IMG/VR virus record: IMGVR_UViG_3300029722_000070 | Coordinates: 1-6,005 of that record | Direction: 5' to 3' (one strand) | DNA from: a virus | Lineage: Duplodnaviria; Heunggongvirae; Uroviricota; Caudoviricetes | DNA: 6,005 nt | Shown: one piece after another, positions 1-6,005 of the stretch | Layout: the number at the start of each line of letters is the position of its first letter | Numbering within the stretch: the first letter of the stretch is position 1 | Made by a program: the position numbers and the translations under genes | The notes under the pieces: model-generated | Databases searched by the model: none | Seen by the model: the letters and a program-made list of their open reading frames with translations, nothing else | Told to the model about the DNA's origin: nothing

Positions 1-213
1 CATTTGCGCTGTCACTTTCGGTACCGGTGACACCGGTTCACTTTCACCAGCCTGAATCAGCCACCACATCGAACCCTTGTTATCCGCTTCACCGCGGCGC
101 TTCAGTTTCCACAGTTCGTTGACCGCATCTTCACGGCTGATTCCAAGGCGGGCCGCCACTACCTGTGAAGAGGCTCTTTTCAGTGCTTTCAGTGCGTCAA
201 ATACGGTTTCCAT
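1..213 (-). CDS. Small hypothetical protein, possibly a winged-helix DNA-binding protein at the Ren position downstream of P; the 3' end runs off the left edge of the window
   Basis: ATG at 213-211 (complement) with GGAGGA 7 nt upstream (complement of 221-226). Reading frame is open to position 1. Translation begins METVFDALKALKRASSQVVAARLGISREDAVNELWKLKRRGEADNKGSMWWLIQ. It sits where ren lies in lambda, directly after the P-like gene. Not in the ORF track because no stop falls inside the window. Confidence 0.5.
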   Translation of the reverse strand, partial: METVFDALKALKRASSQVVAARLGISREDAVNELWKLKRRGEADNKGSMWWLIQAGESEPVSPVPKVTAQM

Positions 214-246
214 TAAAATTTCCTCCGACAAAATCGTTTCTCAGAT

Positions 247-909
247 TCAAATAAAACCAGCTGCCTTCCGGCGTTCGTATTCCTGTTTCAGCCGTTCAAT
301 TGGCGTTGGCCCTTGCGGGTGTTTCGCCCCTTCCAGTTGTCGTCGCACTGGCGGAACACTCATCCCGTTACCAACATGCTTTGCCCATTTCGTCAGTTGC
401 CGTTCCGCAAGTCGTTTTAACTCACCCTGCGTCATCTGGCGCTCAATCCCTCTGGTACGCATTTCGAGGCAGATGTGGTACAGCACAGGCTGTGGCCACG
501 GGTATTTATCACTCCCGTCGTATCGCCAGGATTCATTGCGCCAGCGCCGGTACTCTTCCATCACTGCATCCACCGTAAGACCAAATGGATTTGCCCCACT
601 CTCCGAAATCAGTGCAACAAACTCAGCCAGGTCCGGGGGCCACGTTTCACCCGCCCGGCAGCGGTCCATGCACTGACGGCAGACCAGCCGGATTTGCTGT
701 TCAGTCATCGTGCCAATCTGGGCAATCCATAGCTTCGAAGGTGCGGCCCCGTTCTTCTGTGTCCAGCGGTTCGAATACACCTCCCCCATAAGCTCCCACA
801 GCTTCCAGGCCGTTTCCGTTGCTGATAAATCCGTTGTCACGTTCCCACTGTTCGCGTGCTGCCCGGATTTCCTGAACTGCCCGTGATGCCGTGCCACCTG
901 ATGCTGCAT
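247..909 (-). CDS. Replication protein P-like (DnaB helicase loader, lambda P family)
   Basis: 220-aa ORF with AGGGGG Shine-Dalgarno about 7 nt upstream of the ATG at 909. From recalled sequence, the C-terminal half (YPWPQPVLYHICLEMRTRGIERQMTQGELKRLAERQLTKWAKHV) aligns with lambda P (YPWKSNAHYWLVTNLYQNMRANALTDAELRRKAADELVHMTARIN), and the central IGTMTEQQIRLVCRQ segment aligns with lambda P GITTMEQVNAGMRVAR. Position after an O-like gene fits. Confidence 0.78.
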   Translation of the reverse strand: MQHQVARHHGQFRKSGQHANSGNVTTDLSATETAWKLWELMGEVYSNRWTQKNGAAPSKLWIAQIGTMTEQQIRLVCRQCMDRCRAGETWPPDLAEFVALISESGANPFGLTVDAVMEEYRRWRNESWRYDGSDKYPWPQPVLYHICLEMRTRGIERQMTQGELKRLAERQLTKWAKHVGNGMSVPPVRRQLEGAKHPQGPTPIERLKQEYERRKAAGFI

Positions 910-1429
910 GGCTTACCCCCTTGCTGACTGGTTTTACCTGTGCCCTGACGTGCTGCACGTGGCGGGCAAATTTCTGCTCCCACTGAACCTGCGTGAAAAC
1001 CTTCCCCTCCGCCATCCAGTAATCCCGGAATGCGGCAAGCTCTGCAGGTGTAAATTCCGGCTCAGGCAGAGCCATACCCCACACTGCTGCCCGTTGTCGA
1101 AAATCCGACGACGGCTGCCAGACAGTAGTCATCAAAAATTTCCCGATCGGTTCGCTCAGGCCGTCCAGGTATTCAGGTTCGGCTGTCTGCAACGGCGCAC
1201 CATGCGACTCACCGGTTGGAGCACTCTCGCGCATGCGCGTGTTATGTGTGGGGTTTAATTCTGTATCTGTATCTTTATCTGTCGTGACTTGTCGTGACTT
1301 GTCGTGACAGATGCGTGACACGTCGTGACTCATCGTGACAATCAGCATCATATTTCCGCAGCTTTTCGCGCTCCCGCTGCGCTCTCTTGCGCTCTGCCGG
1401 GGATTTTGCCGTTTGCGAAACGTTACCAT
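701..1429 (-). CDS. O-like replication initiator, C-terminal portion; in a different frame from the N-terminal ORF, so probably a frameshifted gene or pseudogene
   Basis: 242-aa ORF. The first 60 or so residues are low-complexity and read through the repeat array, but from about residue 80 the sequence looks protein-like (FLMTTVWQPSSDFRQRAAVWGMALPEPEFTPAELAAFRDYWMAEGKVFTQVQWEQKFARHV). No convincing ribosome-binding site of its own. It overlaps ORF 1275-1754 by 155 nt and overlaps the P start by 209 nt in another frame. Confidence 0.4.
   Translation of the reverse strand: MVTFRKRQNPRQSARERSGSAKSCGNMMLIVTMSHDVSRICHDKSRQVTTDKDTDTELNPTHNTRMRESAPTGESHGAPLQTAEPEYLDGLSEPIGKFLMTTVWQPSSDFRQRAAVWGMALPEPEFTPAELAAFRDYWMAEGKVFTQVQWEQKFARHVQHVRAQVKPVSKGVSHAASGGTASRAVQEIRAAREQWERDNGFISNGNGLEAVGAYGGGVFEPLDTEERGRTFEAMDCPDWHDD
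1260..1283. repeat. Four tandem hexamers (TCTGTA TCTGTA TCTTTA TCTGTC), AT-rich, abutting repeat array A
   Basis: Read directly from the sequence at 1260-1283, preceded by TTTAATT. An AT-rich tract next to iterons is the usual layout for a DNA unwinding element. Confidence 0.5.
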
Positions 1430-1748
1430 TGTCCTCTTTCAGCACCTGACGTTTTTCCCATCCGGAAATAAGGTCACCATCCAGAACCCGCCCCTGCATT
1501 GCATGCAAAATTGAATCAATTACGTCTTCCGTCACATCAAGCGCACTTGCTAAATCTTCCGTCGTGACATCAATGTGACCACGTAGTGACACGCCGTGAC
1601 ATGTCGTGACATTTCGTGACGCACTCACCAGAAGGTGGATATACACCGCCATCACTGTTGCGATTGGCTGTCCTGAGACCCTGGCAATGGTTCGCCATTT
1701 GGGATCATTTGGCATGTCATGCCACAATCTGAGCCAGGCATTAGCCAT
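1275..1748 (-). CDS. O-like replication initiator, N-terminal (putative origin-binding) portion
   Basis: ORF track gives 1275-1754 from a GTG; the in-frame ATG at 1748-1746 has a GAGGTG Shine-Dalgarno just upstream and is preferred. It lies between the CII-position gene and the P-like gene, as O does in lambda. Both repeat arrays fall inside it. It ends at a stop inside repeat array A. Confidence 0.6.
   Translation of the reverse strand: MANAWLRLWHDMPNDPKWRTIARVSGQPIATVMAVYIHLLVSASRNVTTCHGVSLRGHIDVTTEDLASALDVTEDVIDSILHAMQGRVLDGDLISGWEKRQVLKEDNGNVSQTAKSPAERKRAQREREKLRKYDADCHDESRRVTHLSRQVTTSHDR
1284..1339. repeat. Iteron-like array A: six GTGAC cores (consensus TCGTGAC) phased at 10-11 bp
   Basis: GTGAC begins at 1284, 1294, 1304, 1315, 1325 and 1335 (spacings 10, 10, 11, 10, 10). 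The first three units are exact copies of GTCGTGACTT. Helical-turn phasing inside an initiator gene suggests initiator binding sites (ori). Confidence 0.7.
1564..1620. repeat. Iteron-like array B: six GTGAC cores phased at 10-11 bp
   Basis: GTGAC begins at 1564, 1575, 1586, 1596, 1606 and 1616 (spacings 11, 11, 10, 10, 10). Same core and phasing as array A, about 280 bp away, within the N-terminal coding part of the O-like gene. Confidence 0.7.
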
Positions 1749-1816
1749 ACTCACCTCATCTGATACCGAACTTTACCCTCGAACATCCGGAAGAAATCCG
1801 GCATGAATATTGTTGG

Positions 1817-2242
1817 TCAATGCACGACAACAGCATTACCAGGCTGACCACCACTGTTAGTCAGGGTGCCCCAGGCGATCGCCGCTGCGACAAAATCATC
1901 CACATCTTTCACCAGCCGATCCCTCCGTTCGACGATCTCACGGTAATATTCAGAGCTGTGACTGCGCATACGGGCCACCAGCAGAGGCGGCATTGCCTTT
2001 TCGATCGCCGGTAACAGAGCCTGAATTTTTTCAACAGCATCAGGGGTGTCTTTATCCAGCCAACGGAAAATTTTCTGGGTATTACGAGCCAGGGCTTCCG
2101 GATGGCTGTCGTCGTACAGTTCCGGGAACGTCATTCCCAGCTCGAAATACGCTTTGGTAATTTTCGCAGCCGGTACTTTTTCGCCGTCCGGATGCGCCCA
2201 GACATTCATCGCCATGCGGATATGTTCATGTTTGATTTTCAT
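1817..2242 (-). CDS. YdaT-like protein at the CII position
   Basis: 141-aa ORF whose ATG (2242-2240) overlaps the stop of the upstream cro-like gene (2239-2241) by 3 nt, which suggests translational coupling. It occupies the slot between cro and the replication genes. The MKIKHEHI N-terminus and length match my recollection of the YdaT family; this is from memory, not a search. Confidence 0.65.
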   Translation of the reverse strand: MKIKHEHIRMAMNVWAHPDGEKVPAAKITKAYFELGMTFPELYDDSHPEALARNTQKIFRWLDKDTPDAVEKIQALLPAIEKAMPPLLVARMRSHSSEYYREIVERRDRLVKDVDDFVAAAIAWGTLTNSGGQPGNAVVVH

Positions 2243-2454
2243 GAATCATTCTTTCCTTCGTTCGAGGTGCTATCCTGCTTCTTGTAAAGTTCTGGGTTGT
2301 ATTTCAATTCACCGTTAGTAATTTCATCCAGTTCCATTGCGCGAAGTTTGGGAATAACTGCTTTCCACCGCACAACAGCCACATGTGAAATTCCAAGAGC
2401 CTCAGCTACTAGTCGCTTTTTTTTGAAATAGCGCAGAACATCATCTTTGAACAT
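2239..2454 (-). CDS. cro: Cro-like HTH regulator (P22 Cro / YdaS family)
   Basis: 71-aa ORF with AGGAGAG Shine-Dalgarno 5-6 nt upstream of the ATG at 2454. The sequence MFKDDVLRYFKKKRLVAEALGISHVAVVRWKAVIPKLRAMELDEITNGELKYNPELY aligns along its length with P22 Cro as I recall it (MYKKDVIDHFGTQRAVAKALGISDAAVSQWKEVIPEKDAYRLEIVTAGALKYQ). It is divergent from the repressor gene. Confidence 0.85.
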   Translation of the reverse strand: MFKDDVLRYFKKKRLVAEALGISHVAVVRWKAVIPKLRAMELDEITNGELKYNPELYKKQDSTSNEGKNDS

Positions 2455-2483
2455 AAAACTCTCCTGTTATTTCGAGCAGAAGG

Positions 2484-2497
2484 GTAACAATAGTTAC
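2484..2497. promoter_or_regulatory. Candidate operator O1 (GTAAC-AATA-GTTAC)
   Basis: 14-bp site with perfect 5-bp inverted-repeat arms, read directly from the sequence. Confidence 0.55.
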
Positions 2498-2531
2498 ATA
2501 ACAATGTCAACCATAGCAACATCACTTGGTA

Positions 2532-2545
2532 GTAACATTGGTTAC
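2532..2545. promoter_or_regulatory. Candidate operator O2 (GTAAC-ATTG-GTTAC), abutting the repressor start codon
   Basis: Same arms and spacer length as O1, centred 48 bp from it, ending one base before the ATG at 2546. Confidence 0.55.
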
Positions 2546-3220
2546 ATGAAAAACACTATCAGCGAACGTATTCGGAATCGTCGAAAAGACGTTGGATTAA
2601 CCCAACAGCAGGTTGCGAAAGCAATCGGCATATCTCGTGTATCCGTAACAAAATGGGAAAATGGCTCTTCAAAACCTGACGGTGAGAATTTGTATCTACT
2701 GTCAAAATTGCTTTCCAAATCTCCTGAATGGATTCTTTATGGAAAGGACTGTCACGATAAAACCGATGATCTGCGTCTGAATCAGTACCCTTACATTAGT
2801 GACAACATCGCCCGGTTGCCCGTTTTAACGTGGGAACAGGCTGGTTATTGGGATATGAGTTGTCCAGTAACCAAGATTCCTGGTATTAAGAACTGGGTTG
2901 ATGTCATGACAAAAACCGCTGAAAACTCTTTTTTATTGCATGTTGAGGGAGATGCGATGACAAACTCTAACGGCCTCCCAACCATCCCCGACGGATCTAC
3001 CGTGCTGATTACACCATGCTCAAGTAACATTAGAGAACTGGTGGGAAAAATAATCTTAATCCAATTGGAAGGAACGCCAAACGTAACACTAAAAAAAGTT
3101 GCGATTGACGGACCAAACATCTATTTGTTGTCACTGAATCCGCTTTACAAACCCATCGAACTGAATGGTGGTTACACCATTAAAGGTAAAGTTTCACAAA
3201 TACATCAATACTTAGACTGA
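2546..3220 (+). CDS. cI: CI/C2-type immunity repressor (N-terminal HTH, C-terminal LexA-like S24 domain) with Ala at the nucleophile position
   Basis: ORF track gives 2447-3220. I chose the ATG at 2546 because MKNTISERIRNRRKDVGLTQQQVAKAIGISRVSVTKWENGSSKPDGENLYLLSKLLSKSPEWILYGKD aligns from residue 1 with the P22 C2 N-terminus as recalled (MNTQLMGERIRARRKKLKIRQAALGKMVGVSNVAISQWERSETEPNGENLLALSKALQCSPDYLLKGD), and because it leaves both operators intergenic. The C-terminal domain aligns with lambda CI and P22 C2: SFLLHVEGDAMT against SFWLDVQGDSMT, and VTLKKVA against ATFKKLV. No obvious Shine-Dalgarno, which fits a leaderless transcript as for lambda cI. Confidence 0.9.
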   Translation: MKNTISERIRNRRKDVGLTQQQVAKAIGISRVSVTKWENGSSKPDGENLYLLSKLLSKSPEWILYGKDCHDKTDDLRLNQYPYISDNIARLPVLTWEQAGYWDMSCPVTKIPGIKNWVDVMTKTAENSFLLHVEGDAMTNSNGLPTIPDGSTVLITPCSSNIRELVGKIILIQLEGTPNVTLKKVAIDGPNIYLLSLNPLYKPIELNGGYTIKGKVSQIHQYLD

Positions 3221-3225
3221 GTCAG

Positions 3226-3251
3226 AACCCGCATTCATTGCGGGTTTTTTA
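3226..3251 (+). terminator. Rho-independent terminator downstream of the repressor gene
   Basis: Stem AACCCGCA (3226-3233) and TGCGGGTT (3239-3246) with loop TTCAT, followed by TTTT (3247-3250). Begins 6 nt after the repressor stop codon. Confidence 0.75.
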
Positions 3252-3294
3252 TGCCCTCAAATGTACCTTTTGTAACATTGCATTGACTCGAAAG

Positions 3295-3308
3295 GTAACT
3301 CTTGTTAC
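3295..3308. promoter_or_regulatory. Candidate operator O3 (GTAAC-TCTT-GTTAC), OL-like, with a possible rightward early promoter
   Basis: Third copy of the GTAAC-N4-GTTAC palindrome, flanked as GGTAAC...GTTACC. A GTAAC half-site lies at 3272-3276 and a TTGACT hexamer at 3284-3289. It sits after the repressor terminator and upstream of the rightward small gene at 3490, the position OL/PL occupies relative to cI in lambda. Confidence 0.5.
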
Positions 3309-3489
3309 CCTAACAACATACCAACCCACCCCGCCCCACAGAACGCCGGGCAATACTGCGAGTTACCAGGCAGTGGTCAGGGGTTAAGTAGCCAGCCCGA
3401 GGCGTAAGAACATGACGGCAGGGTTCAACTTTAACTATGCAGCAGGTTTTTGTTCCGCTCCCCCGGCGTTAAGGGGAAATGAGGTCAGC

Positions 3490-3642
3490 ATGGATACTAT
3501 CGAGCTTGGCAACAGCGAATCTCTGGTATGCGGCGTGTTTCCCAACCAGGACGGCACGTTTACCGCGATGACGTATACCAGAAGCAAAACGTTTAAAACG
3601 GAAGCTGGCGCGCGTCGCTGGTTAGCAAGAAACTCTGACTGA
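3490..3642 (+). CDS. Small hypothetical protein, YdaF-like (DUF1391-type prophage protein)
   Basis: GAGG at 3481-3484, 5 nt before the ATG at 3490. 50-aa product MDTIELGNSESLVCGVFPNQDGTFTAMTYTRSKTFKTEAGARRWLARNSD. The ORF track starts the same frame at 3412 (76 aa); I prefer the shorter form for its ribosome-binding site and its resemblance to the roughly 50-aa Rac YdaF as I recall it. First gene right of the OL-like operator. Confidence 0.6.
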   Translation: MDTIELGNSESLVCGVFPNQDGTFTAMTYTRSKTFKTEAGARRWLARNSD

Positions 3643-3740
3643 TGAAGGTTAGTAATTAAAGAGTTCTCCACAGGCGAAGTGGAATACGTTCGCCGGACAC
3701 GGGTAAGCATTCGGCATGCTCTTTAACAATCTGGGTATTC

Positions 3741-4187
3741 CTAACCACAAAGGAATCGCATCAATTTGGATTTTGCAGACAGTTTCTCTTGTTGTTCTAC
3801 GGAGATTCCTATTTTGATCTGGGTTTTTAAGATTGCGATATCTTTAAGCGACGACCAAATATTATCATCTGTTTTTTCCAGGAGCTTTAACTGCATTTTC
3901 AATTCCGAATCGGAATATTTTTCTGCATCATCATAAAGCTGCAGATATTCTGCGGATTTTCTCATTGCGTTACCTGACTTTTGTCCGAATCCGTAAATCG
4001 TTTGAACGGTTGCTATCACAACAATGAGAACTCCAGAAACTTCAGGAATAAATCCACCAATGACAGATGAACCGAGGATAATACTCACCACTGAGAAAAG
4101 TTTATCGAGACGACCAGTCGCTACAGAGAATAGTTGTTCAAGAAAATAACCATATAAAACCCTGTCAAGAATATCATCCCGGTCCAT
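3741..4187 (-). CDS. Small membrane protein with two predicted transmembrane helices; candidate superinfection-exclusion protein (SieB-like)
   Basis: 148-aa ORF with AGGTGA 7 nt upstream of the ATG at 4187. Two adjacent hydrophobic segments (LFSVVSIILGSSVIGGFI and VSGVLIVVIATVQTIYGF) followed by a charged, helix-prone C-terminus. It is oriented against its neighbours, as sieB is in the Rac prophage. No competing ORF on the other strand. Confidence 0.6.
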   Translation of the reverse strand: MDRDDILDRVLYGYFLEQLFSVATGRLDKLFSVVSIILGSSVIGGFIPEVSGVLIVVIATVQTIYGFGQKSGNAMRKSAEYLQLYDDAEKYSDSELKMQLKLLEKTDDNIWSSLKDIAILKTQIKIGISVEQQEKLSAKSKLMRFLCG

Positions 4188-4246
4188 ATATCATCACCTG
4201 CTTGTTTGATTGTTGCTGTTCCCCCTCTCCTCTGAAGGAGCTGGAG

Positions 4247-4435
4247 ATGGTTTTGGTCGAATGTTTTTCTCAGGTATATGTTTCCTGGTATTCGGAATGT
4301 CCGCCCTGTCCGCAGGCTTACCAGTACCTGAACAATTCTTTTGAACCACCATATAAAACACCTTCCTGTTGTTGGGGATATCCAGATTATACAGATTTCC
4401 TGTTATTGGGGAATGACGGAAACCACCTCGCCTGA
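4247..4435 (+). CDS. Candidate small cysteine- and aromatic-rich protein (62 aa); uncertain
   Basis: GAAGGAG Shine-Dalgarno (4234-4240) 6 nt before the ATG at 4247. Product MVLVECFSQVYVSWYSECPPCPQAYQYLNNSFEPPYKTPSCCWGYPDYTDFLLLGNDGNHLA has 6 Cys in 62 residues. The ORF track lists the same frame from 4202. No homolog recognised and codon usage looks atypical, so it may be spurious. Confidence 0.2.
   Translation: MVLVECFSQVYVSWYSECPPCPQAYQYLNNSFEPPYKTPSCCWGYPDYTDFLLLGNDGNHLA
4363..4412. repeat. Pair of 16-bp direct repeats TTCCTGTTRTTGGGGA
   Basis: Copies at 4363-4378 (TTCCTGTTGTTGGGGA) and 4397-4412 (TTCCTGTTATTGGGGA), one mismatch, start-to-start spacing 34 bp. They fall in different frames of the 4247 ORF, so this is a DNA-level repeat rather than a peptide repeat. 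Confidence 0.5.
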
Positions 4436-4665
4436 CGTGGTTAAAAGCAGGCACACAACACGAAAGCGCACGGCGAGATTCCTTTGCATATAAGGCTTGT
4501 CGTTAAATTTCTTCGACCGTGCACTTCCGGTTGTGGCAGTCCGCGAAATGGCGCGGCGGTAAGTATGGCTGGGGCTTCCTCCATTGCTCCAGAAAATGCA
4601 CCGGGTCGTCAGGTTGACCATACGCTTAAGTGACAGCCCCGCCACAATACCCATGCGTAGTCTTT

Positions 4666-4709
4666 GGTGGCATCAGTTCTACTCCGTGACTGCTCTGCCA
4701 CCCTTTTTA
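4666..4709 (+). terminator. Candidate intrinsic terminator or RNA 3' hairpin
   Basis: GGTGGCA (4666-4672) pairs with TGCCACC (4696-4702), with an inner CAGT/ACTG pairing, followed by CTTTTT (4703-4708). The loop is long (23 nt), so the call is weak. Confidence 0.3.
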
Positions 4710-4814
4710 AAGTGAATTTTGTGATGCGGTGAATGCGGCTATGCGCACGCGGAACAGTTAAAACCGTAAAGTGGTCTTTTACGGGGCGTAACGGGCATCC
4801 TTCTGTATTCCGGC

Positions 4815-4854
4815 GTTAATTGTTAACTGGTTAACGTCACCTGGAGGCACCAGG
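4815..4854. promoter_or_regulatory. Cluster of GTTAA(C) motifs plus a short hairpin upstream of the 4891 gene; candidate regulatory site
   Basis: GTTAATTGTTAACTGGTTAAC at 4815-4835, with inverted arms TTAAC (4823-4827) and GTTAA (4830-4834). Hairpin CCTGG-AGGCA-CCAGG at 4840-4854. Lies 35-75 bp upstream of the ATG at 4891. Confidence 0.3.
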
Positions 4855-4890
4855 CACTGCATCACAAAATTCATTGTTGAGGACGCGATA

Positions 4891-5079
4891 ATGGAAACGT
4901 TATTACCAAACGTTAATACGTCTGAAGGTTGTTTTGATATTGGAGTTCTGCTCAGTAACCGGGAGTTTACTGAAGATGCCATTAAGATGAGAAAATATGA
5001 ACCTTATCTTCTCAATGATAATTCCATACTTTCCAGAATTGCCCTTCTTGAACTTGGTATTATCGGAGAACAGCAGTGA
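4891..5079 (+). CDS. Small hypothetical protein (62 aa), early-operon gene
   Basis: GAGG at 4879-4882, 8 nt before the ATG. Product METLLPNVNTSEGCFDIGVLLSNREFTEDAIKMRKYEPYLLNDNSILSRIALLELGIIGEQQ. No homolog recognised. Confidence 0.5.
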   Translation: METLLPNVNTSEGCFDIGVLLSNREFTEDAIKMRKYEPYLLNDNSILSRIALLELGIIGEQQ

Positions 5080-5096
5080 CTTCAGCATTTGCACTG

Positions 5097-5240
5097 ATGA
5101 TGACCGTTTTTCTTATAACGGGCGAGCCACAGACTGTGATTACCGGAATTTTTGCCAGTAAAGAATCCCGCCTCCAGGCAAGAGACAAGCAAAAAATTTC
5201 TGGTGAATGCCTCCCGTTAAAAAAGTATCGCTGTACCTGA
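5097..5240 (+). CDS. Candidate small protein (47 aa from the ATG at 5097, or 54 aa from the GTG at 5076), possibly Kil-like
   Basis: The GTG at 5076-5078 overlaps the TGA stop of the preceding gene (5077-5079, GTGA overlap), suggesting translational coupling. Product MMTVFLITGEPQTVITGIFASKESRLQARDKQKISGECLPLKKYRCT has a hydrophobic N-terminus and a basic C-terminus. Absent from the ORF track, presumably for length. The Kil comparison rests only on size and position. Confidence 0.3.
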   Translation: MMTVFLITGEPQTVITGIFASKESRLQARDKQKISGECLPLKKYRCT

Positions 5241-5357
5241 ATAACGAAACACCGGCTGGATAACCCGCCAGCCATATTAACACCATACCAACGGATTAAA
5301 AATGCCAGCAATGGCAGGGATTCGTTCACCCTGAAATCTGTCATGAGGTTAAAACAA

Positions 5358-6005
5358 ATGAGTAAAGTCTTTATTTGCGCCGCTATTCCTGACGAACTGG
5401 CAACAAGGGAAGAAGGCGCTGTGGCTGTAGCCACAGCCATTGAAGCTGGCGACGAACGCCGTGCTCGAGCAAAATTTCACTGGCAGTTCCTGGAACATTA
5501 TCCGGCTGCTCAGGACTGCGCTTATAAATTTATTGTCTGCGAGGATAAACCTGGCATACCCCGCCCTGCCCTCGATTCATGGGATGCTGAATATATGCAG
5601 GAAAACCGCTGGGATGAGGAGTCTGCTTCTTTTGTCCCGGTTGAGACTGAATCCGATCCGATGAACGTCACTTTTGACAAGCTGGCCCCTGAAGTACAGA
5701 ACGCTGTCATGGTTAAGTTCGACACATGTGAAAACATCACCGTTGATATGGTTATTAGCGCACAGGAATTGTTGCAGGAAGACATGGCAACATTCGACGG
5801 ACATATCGTTGAAGCGTTGATGAAAATGCCAGAAGTTAACGCCATGTATCCGGAGCTTAAGTTGCACGCCATTGGGTGGGTTAAGCATAAATGTATTCCT
5901 GGTGCTAAATGGCCCGAAATTCAGGCAGAGATGCGCATCTGGAAAAAACGTCGCGAAGGTGAACGCAAGGAAACCGGAAAATACACGTCTGTTGTTGATC
6001 TCGCC
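5358..6005 (+). CDS. Hypothetical acidic protein, 5' partial view (at least 216 aa, continues past the window)
   Basis: GAGG at 5345-5348, 9 nt before the ATG at 5358. Frame is open through 6005. Product begins MSKVFICAAIPDELATREEGAVAVATAIEAGDERRARAKFHWQFLEHYPAAQDCAYKFIVCEDKPGIPRPALDSWDAEYMQENRWDEE. Not in the ORF track because it has no in-window stop. The listed ORFs 5440-5664, 5522-5872 and 5577-5888 overlap it in other frames and look spurious. Confidence 0.7.
   Translation, partial: MSKVFICAAIPDELATREEGAVAVATAIEAGDERRARAKFHWQFLEHYPAAQDCAYKFIVCEDKPGIPRPALDSWDAEYMQENRWDEESASFVPVETESDPMNVTFDKLAPEVQNAVMVKFDTCENITVDMVISAQELLQEDMATFDGHIVEALMKMPEVNAMYPELKLHAIGWVKHKCIPGAKWPEIQAEMRIWKKRREGERKETGKYTSVVDLA

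Follow-up and report, generated by a model that had tools for sequence, protein, structure and literature searches.

The 6,005-nucleotide window analysed here (the whole stretch, positions 1 to 6,005 of IMG/VR virus record IMGVR_UViG_3300029722_000070) is the immunity region of an Escherichia coli lambdoid prophage, with a P22-type cro gene, a C2/cI-type repressor gene and a dicBF-type leftward (PL) operon, which reads rightward in the window. Three copies of the palindrome GTAAC-N4-GTTAC around the repressor gene are very probably the operators of a P22-type (immC-like) lysis/lysogeny switch, on which the repressor and Cro would act. Judged by sequence, the operator set is best described as five sites with P22 spacing, namely the right operators OR1, OR2 and OR3 between cro and the repressor gene and the left operators OL2 and OL1 beyond the repressor gene, rather than as the three palindromes first noticed. 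The switch belongs to a thoroughly known kind, of which it represents an uncharacterised specificity class, and the principles of lambdoid switches are unchanged by it.

An exact search of the window for GTAACNNNNGTTAC finds the palindrome at 2484–2497 (GTAACAATAGTTAC), 2532–2545 (GTAACATTGGTTAC) and 3295–3308 (GTAACTCTTGTTAC) and nowhere else, in agreement with the original prediction, and none of 200 dinucleotide-preserving shuffles held even a single match. The first two sites lie within the 91 bp (2455–2545) that separate the ATG of cro (2454, minus strand) from that of the repressor gene (2546), and the third lies 3′ of the repressor's terminator hairpin, ahead of the rightward genes; the layout initially proposed, two sites between divergent regulators and one past the repressor terminator, is correct. 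Enrichment of the motif at this locus had been put forward as a check, and indeed no further exact copy is found in a 41.3 kb stretch of E. coli SCU-104 (prophage plus flank, 100% identical to the window), nor any copy in 200 kb of host chromosome sampled at four places, the chance expectation being ∼5 per 5.2 Mb genome and the total sampled for extra copies 241 kb.

We refer to the three exact sites as OR1 (2484–2497, GTAAC-AATA-GTTAC), OR3 (2532–2545, GTAAC-ATTG-GTTAC), the last base of which directly precedes the repressor ATG, and OL1 (3295–3308, GTAAC-TCTT-GTTAC). A search allowing two mismatches adds 3263–3276 (GTACCTTTTGTAAC; GTACC-TTTT-GTAAC), a weak OL2 32 bp from OL1, and the additional GTAAC half-site previously reported at 3272 is real, being the right half of this site (3272–3276). 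A putative weak OR2 (2507–2520, TCAAC-CATA-GCAAC), proposed by positional homology, also lies within the intergenic region, 23 bp from OR1 and 25 bp from OR3. When a position weight matrix (PWM) built from relatives only was scored over the 5992 positions of the window, OR1 came top, the three exact sites took ranks 1–3 and OL2 was fourth. The three palindromes therefore stand as likely operators, as was first suggested, but the set comprises five sites, with the supposed lone half-site forming part of the degenerate OL2. Operator-like sequences also occur inside the repressor gene, at 2867–2880 (GTAACCAAGATTCC, PWM rank 5) and at 3024–3037 (with a GTAACATT half-site); nothing marks them as beyond chance.

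The sites coincide with putative early promoters, which we assign from perfect −35 hexamers, spacing and conservation. PR (2481–2510, minus strand) would comprise a −35 TTGACA (2510–2505), an 18 bp spacer and a −10 TACCCT (2486–2481), and PL (3283–3311, plus strand) a −35 TTGACT (3283–3288), a 17 bp spacer and a −10 TACCCT (3306–3311). OR1 overlaps the PR spacer and OL1 lies between the PL −35 and −10, so that at both promoters alike the palindrome fills the spacer and its final TAC forms the first three bases of the −10; OR2 overlaps the PR −35, and OL2 is situated 5′ of the PL −35. Among related copies the PR −35 is invariant and the PL −35 almost so (TTAACC in three loci), and the −10 hexamers vary between TACCCT, TACCTT, TACCAT, TACTCT and TACATT (at PR the first four only), always keeping T1, A2 and T6, with PL reading TACCTT in most relatives. 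The frame of −35 TTGAC(A/T), 17–18 bp and −10 TACCCT is repeated in eight related phages as well as in P22, and at PL specifically the −35/N17/−10 arrangement is seen in 733R5, AH07, ZF40, the Hamiltonella phage, 606R7 and P22. PR would drive cro, the cII-like gene, O and P, and PL would drive ydfA, DicF, dicB, exo, xis and int.

Comparison with heteroimmune relatives links the sites to the regulators. Phage vB_EcoM-606R7 is ∼94% identical to the window in the cII-like gene, in the 3′ third of cro, at the PL −35 and throughout the PL leader; its repressor and the helix-turn-helix (HTH) of its cro are different. Homology stops at ∼2300 on the left and resumes at ∼3320 on the right, and these breaks delimit a mosaic block, the immunity module (2300–3320), containing the 5′ two-thirds of cro, OR, the repressor gene, its terminator and OL/PL; the sites thus fall inside a block that is exchanged along with repressor and cro HTH. 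At the OL1 position, behind the same TTGACT, 606R7 has CTAAA-TACT-TTTAG, with four more copies of CTAAA type at positions matching OL2, OR1, OR2 and OR3, and its recognition helix reads TGVTIGYW.

Relatives with repressors 88, 70, 66 and 52% identical to that of the window (from E. coli, Salmonella, an unassigned contig and Hamiltonella, respectively) have GTAAC-N4-GTTAC or one-mismatch versions of it at OR1, OR3 and OL1, with the exception of OL1 in the Salmonella locus, where the downstream region is unrelated and no OL site was seen. In the 66% relative (L094) there are two perfect palindromes at OL, that in the OL2 position reading GTAAC-AATA-GTTAC. The repressors of E. coli vB_EcoS-733R5, Pantoea AH07 and Pectobacterium ZF40 are 42–45% identical to that of the window, and these phages have GTAAC-N4-G(T/G)TAC at OR1, OR3 and OL1, with weaker or incomplete copies at OR2 and OL2. 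The window, 733R5 and AH07 have the recognition helix SRVSVTKW and ZF40 has SRVTITKW, and the GTAAC-motif repressors (42–70% identical) share the pattern (S/T)RV(S/T)(V/I)TKW; a distance of exactly 48 bp separates OR1 from OR3 in every relative of this type. At the corresponding positions mEp390 (helix NRVTVTGW) has GTAGG/GTAAG-N4-CCTAC, and the P22 sequence (helix SNVAISQW) gives TTAAG-N4-CTTAA cores, in accordance with the earlier statements that the sites differ from the P22 operators and that the recognition helix has diverged.

Four helix/half-site classes (GTAAC; GTAGG/GTAAG...CCTAC; CTAAA; TTAAG) therefore occupy the same positions, and the half-site varies jointly with the recognition helices of both repressor and Cro, a classical hallmark of operator/repressor specificity. 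The proposal that the palindromes define the immunity specificity of this prophage is borne out insofar as the half-site changes with the helices in heteroimmune relatives, but the motif is not unique to the prophage: it may mark a wider immunity group, because phages with much-diverged repressors and the same DNA-reading helix use it as well. The same comparison bears on the idea that the palindromes are targets of a host transcription factor or of the YdaT/cII-like protein, or that they act as RNA or DNA hairpins. A 5 bp stem with a 4 nt loop could form in principle, and we found nothing more specific in favour of such readings, whereas heteroimmune phages with the same PL leader, −35 and cII-like gene carry a different palindrome, which changes with the repressor and the cro HTH. 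Moreover, OL1 lies upstream of the PL start and hence outside the PL RNA, and the motif is absent from the sampled host DNA. We consider these readings extremely improbable and reject them on the heteroimmune comparison.

Conservation within the lineage was assessed by comparing the block of the window with those of 80 IMG/VR contigs and of three E. coli genomes whose DNA identity goes down to 82%, which makes 84 copies in all and 59 distinct haplotypes. Across the haplotypes 3 of 30 half-site columns are polymorphic, compared with 3 of 12 columns for the four central bases and 71 of 149 for the rest of the intergenic DNA (half-sites versus remaining intergenic columns, Fisher p = 8e-5). OR1 is unchanged, central 4 bp included, in all but 1 of the 84 loci, and OR3 is invariant in those loci that keep the site beside the ATG, partly by construction as this site was used for lining up the copies. 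At OL1, 83 of 84 loci retain the half-sites, and the centre varies (TCTT, TTCT, TATT, CCTT, ACTT), as would be expected if the centre is uncontacted. The expectation of an OR/OL-like layout has thus held, with sites on the putative early promoters, conserved against a variable background and lying within a swapped mosaic block of about 1 kb.

The three half-site changes trace to two single contigs, one mutant in OR1 and one in OL1. In the first (L085) OR1 (1439–1452) reads GTAACAATAATTAC and OR2 is also changed; in the second (L038) OL1 (about 2250–2263) reads GTAACTCCTATCAC. The repressor gene is intact in both, and their operators may be operator-constitutive or decaying variants.

PGAP annotation places the start of the repressor at ATG 2504 (238 residues), which we reject since it would put OR2, OR3 and the PR −35 within coding sequence. 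All repressor homologues, including those of 219–221 residues, begin at the Met encoded at 2546, and close relatives differ freely in the 14 codons upstream, save where these coincide with operator sequence; we therefore take 2546 as the start, and the 2504 start is likely a misannotation carried into hundreds of database entries. The repressor ATG touches OR3 in all 8 GTAAC-type relatives and also in mEp390, which has its own motif there, and no Shine-Dalgarno sequence precedes ATG 2546. Positions 2–7 of OR3 read TAACAT (2533–2538), a TAnnnT hexamer at a distance fitting a transcription start at 2545/2546, and this is likely the −10 of the repressor maintenance promoter (PRM). The most economical reading is a leaderless maintenance transcript, as for lambda cI. 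Leaderless synthesis is established for PaaR2, the repressor of prophage CP-933P, by 5′ RACE (PMC8630535). With such a start the centre of OR2 would lie at about −32 of PRM, and the same arithmetic gives the same value for P22.

In the switch that we envisage, dimers of the 224-residue repressor would bind OR1 and OL1, with one helix-turn-helix per GTAAC half-site, and occupancy of these sites would exclude RNA polymerase and keep the cro-cII-O-P and ydfA-DicF-dicB-exo-xis-int operons off. The weak OR2, on the PR −35, and OL2, just 5′ of the PL −35, would probably be filled cooperatively from their strong neighbours. OR3 would cover the likely PRM −10, with the transcript beginning at or beside the A of the repressor ATG, and would serve both for autoregulation by the repressor and for Cro to turn the repressor off, the P22-type Cro being expected at the same sites.

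A number of points weigh against this account. A consensus promoter scan of 2300–3600 called no promoter, PR and PL being missed because their −10 hexamers match 3/6 and the threshold was 4/6 per hexamer; the scan, which included terminators, also missed the repressor terminator. A literature search found no binding, footprint or reporter data for this repressor and none of the six exact operator 14-mers in any paper; searching for GTAAC/GTTAC operators returned unrelated systems only, and the ZF40 papers treat Aca2, not cI operators. Two of the 84 loci have a mutated OR1 or OL1, as described above. With a leaderless start OR2 would lie over any PRM −35, and repressor bound there might either activate or repress PRM. 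The remaining points concern the quality of the two weak sites and the state of the prophage, and each feeds an alternative.

OR2 is a poor match, with 4/10 mismatches in its half-sites, a PWM score of −0.84 and rank 22 of 5992, and two of its columns (2517–2518) are polymorphic. OL2 is degenerate in most E. coli copies (majority GTACC-TTTT-GCAAC), and its right half drifts among close relatives, the GTAAC of the window being a singleton and other loci having mostly GCAAC or ACAAC. It could thus be argued that the three perfect palindromes alone are functional, giving an OR of two sites 48 bp apart and an OL of one, and that OR2 and OL2 are chance resemblances. We regard this as unlikely, though it deserves more weight than the other alternatives, since a recognisable site occurs at the exact OR2 and OL2 positions in every relative examined and in P22. 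The OR2 position holds CAAAC-N4-GTTAC, TCAAC-N4-GGTAC or TCAAC-N4-GTAAC in relatives, and there are good sites at the OL2 position in 733R5, AH07 and P22; OL2, the fourth best site in the window, is the position at which the 66% relative has a perfect palindrome. In lambda and P22 the middle operators are as a rule weak and filled through cooperativity, which also counts against three sites acting alone.

A frameshift in the O-like replication gene of this copy means that the prophage under the switch may be defective, and the sites might be conserved relics of a defunct switch in a cryptic prophage, kept through recent divergence. The lack, among 50,697 phage records, of any isolated phage carrying the immunity block, and the missing nucleophile of the repressor (both discussed below), also fit such an origin. 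Recent divergence, however, would spare all intergenic columns equally, whereas 48% of the others vary and only 10% of the half-site columns do; the motif is kept across genera with repressors down to 42% identity, and the repressor open reading frame (ORF) is intact in all 84 loci. Silencing of dicB, DicF and the PR genes is moreover selectable in itself, as for DicA in Qin (PMC10448788). On balance we find a relic improbable and favour a working five-site switch.

The proteins encoded on either side of OR are consistent with this switch. The repressor gene (2546–3220, plus strand) encodes 224 residues with an HTH_3 domain (62.6 bits, residues 9–63) and a Peptidase_S24 domain (PF00717, 61.2 bits, residues 92–216). 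The N-terminal domain matches P22 C2 (E ∼1e-12; 36% identity overall), confirming the resemblance to C2 suggested earlier, and the repressor aligns to lambda cI (3BDN, E = 1.5e-14), its C-terminal domain included. The cro gene (2239–2454, minus strand), with AGGAG 6 nt 5′ of its ATG, encodes a 71-residue protein of the P22_Cro family (PF14549, 59.4 bits against a cut-off of 30.2) that matches the P22 Cro structure (PDB: 1RZS) with E = 9.3e-12 over residues 1–59.

The repressor keeps the Ala-Gly scissile bond in the linker (WEQAGYW, HVQAGMF in lambda) and the catalytic Lys, the general base (lambda Lys192; TLKKV, TFKKL in lambda), a column invariant in the family alignment, but the nucleophile is absent, GDAM standing where lambda has GNSM (Ser149). 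The Ala codon, GCG at ∼2954–2956, is present in 83 of 84 related loci, and Ala is also found in the 89% and 70% identical relatives, with Ser in the 88, 66 and 52% and in all 42–45% identical ones; Ser occupies the position in P0003, P0006, P0007, 733R5, AH07 and ZF40. In LexA and cI, replacing the nucleophile Ser abolishes self-cleavage. The repressor is therefore probably neither RecA-cleavable nor RecA-inducible, because its nucleophile Ser is replaced by Ala. Consistent with a non-inducible repressor, none of the 50,697 phage records carries the block although 13% of genomes do. A search of the prophage for LexA boxes that might mark an SOS-controlled antirepressor likewise gave no convincing candidate, the one match lying inside a coding region and at chance level. 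As a tentative extension, which we hold to be possible though somewhat doubtful, the block's repressor would be naturally non-cleavable, the operators would hold PR and the dicBF-type PL off in an SOS-insensitive manner, leaving the prophage 'locked' or dependent on an antirepressor, and there may be cross-immunity against 733R5 and AH07.

The prophage containing the window is inserted adjacent to ompW in E. coli and retains head, lysis and integration genes. The block (2300–3330) is present at at least 80% coverage in 702 of 5426 complete E. coli genomes (13%), with many O25b:H4-ST131 strains among the carriers. Among 50,697 phage records the immunity block has no near match, only its flanks being matched there, and the repressor finds its best homologue there at 42% identity. 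Phages obtained by induction include heteroimmune siblings that share these flanks. A search of genome contigs with the repressor returned only two irrelevant Firmicutes HTH matches, so the species-representative E. coli genome is evidently without this prophage.

Leftward from the central intergenic region the gene order is cro, a cII-like gene, an O-like replication gene and a lambda-P homologue. The cII-like gene (1817–2242, leftward) is of the YdaT family. The O-like gene, with a DnaT domain, is split into overlapping ORFs at 701–1429 and 1275–1754, and PGAP marks the frameshift. It contains two clusters of five GTCGTGAC-type repeats (1281–1339 and 1561–1620), mostly at 10 bp spacing; these clusters account for 10 of the 13 matches in the window, compared with 4.3 expected, and the repeats are probably origin iterons.

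Rightward the order is the repressor gene, its terminator, ydfA, DicF, dicB, a ydfD-like gene, exo, xis and int, with a 148-residue ORF on the opposite strand between ydfA and DicF. The intrinsic terminator (3224–3252, plus strand) has a 10 bp G+C-rich stem followed by UUUUUUAU and a predicted fold of −16 kcal/mol (z = −4.55; 0 of 200 shuffles fold equally well). What had been described as rightward early genes is the dicBF-type PL operon, associated with inhibition of cell division: ydfA (DUF1391, 95.4 bits), the DicF RNA (4652–4703, plus strand; Rfam RF00039, 58.9 bits), dicB (4891–5079; DicB, 129.5 bits) and, after dicB, the ydfD-like gene (5076–5240; DUF1482 in PGAP annotation) follow in this order. 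The 148-residue ORF (3741–4187, minus strand) matches phrog_6315 (function unknown) and has no Pfam and no PADLOC match. It is missing from 606R7, which has ydfB and ydfC instead, and may be a moron-type insertion.

Heteroimmune phages (606R7, Tritos, Evi and others) have a PL leader ∼95% identical to that of the window (3321–3489), and a core of it, AAGTAGCC...CCGAGGCGTAAGAA, is seen again in Pantoea AH07 and in part in Pectobacterium ZF40. A permissive Rfam search of 3318–3492 gave nothing credible and the fold is no stabler than those of shuffles (z = −0.13); we do not claim an RNA element there.

The operator map resulting from this analysis is testable and comprises the five sites, three proposed promoters and the corrected start of the repressor. 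It concerns an immunity type found very commonly in E. coli, the pandemic lineage ST131 among the carriers, and without a characterised phage representative. It predicts which phages the prophage should exclude and how the toxic dicB/DicF operon stays silent, and that the repressor may be blind to SOS. Given the identical helix, the resident repressor might also confer cross-immunity against phages such as vB_EcoS-733R5 and Pantoea AH07, which otherwise look unrelated.

The proposed switch may be set beside four known systems. With lambda it shares an OR of three sites flanked by divergent repressor and cro genes, further operators at PL past the end of the repressor gene, a repressor with HTH and S24-type C-terminal domain and, if our reading of PRM is right, a leaderless repressor mRNA. 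Lambda differs in its 17 bp operators of unrelated sequence, in a Cro of a different fold family and in the Ser149 nucleophile of cI. OR2 of lambda is centred at about −42 of PRM, compared with a predicted position of about −32 in the window.

The PaaR2/YdaS/YdaT region of prophage CP-933P from E. coli O157:H7 has a similarly short divergent intergenic region (97 bp, 91 bp in the window) and likewise a Cro-like gene followed by a cII-like gene of the YdaT family. Repeated palindromic operators cover PR and PRM there, with a further set at a PL-like promoter (PMC8630535). These operators are 18 bp repeats with the consensus half GTTTAGTAA, and binding to them has been demonstrated (PMC8630535), whereas it is predicted in the window. 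PaaR2 is moreover a different, shorter repressor, and is followed by a toxin-antitoxin pair.

The dicA-dicC-dicBp region of Qin in E. coli K-12 resembles the window in its divergent repressor/Cro pair and in a PL-like promoter 3′ of the repressor. That promoter drives ydfA, DicF, dicB and ydfD, which the window has in the same order (with a ydfD-like gene), and operators have been described at both Qin promoters (PMC10448788). DicA, however, is a protein of 135 residues with neither the S24 domain nor the Ala-Gly bond, and an antirepressor controls it (PMC10448788), whereas the repressor described here has 224 residues, a complete S24 fold and the Ala-Gly site, in a prophage that still has its head, lysis and integration genes.

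P22 immC combines the same elements: a C2-like repressor of HTH_3 and S24 domains, a Cro of the P22_Cro fold and a 14 bp operator core of 5-4-5 design. The geometry, measured on the P22 sequence, is also the same, with 23 bp from OR1 to OR2 and 25 bp from OR2 to OR3, OL1 between the PL −35 (TTGACC in P22) and −10, and OR3 beside the repressor ATG. Small differences are that OL2 lies 35 bp upstream of OL1 in P22 and 32 bp in the window, and that the P22 OR3 core ends 2 nt before the c2 ATG, compared with 0 nt here. The window further differs in its nucleophile Ala and in the dicBF-type operon that follows PL, where no gene like N (P22 gene 24) was seen. The half-site and the helix, TTAAG with SNVAISQW in P22 and GTAAC with SRVSVTKW in the window, have been swapped on a conserved scaffold, the P22 immC geometry, and this should help to predict immunity groups from sequence.

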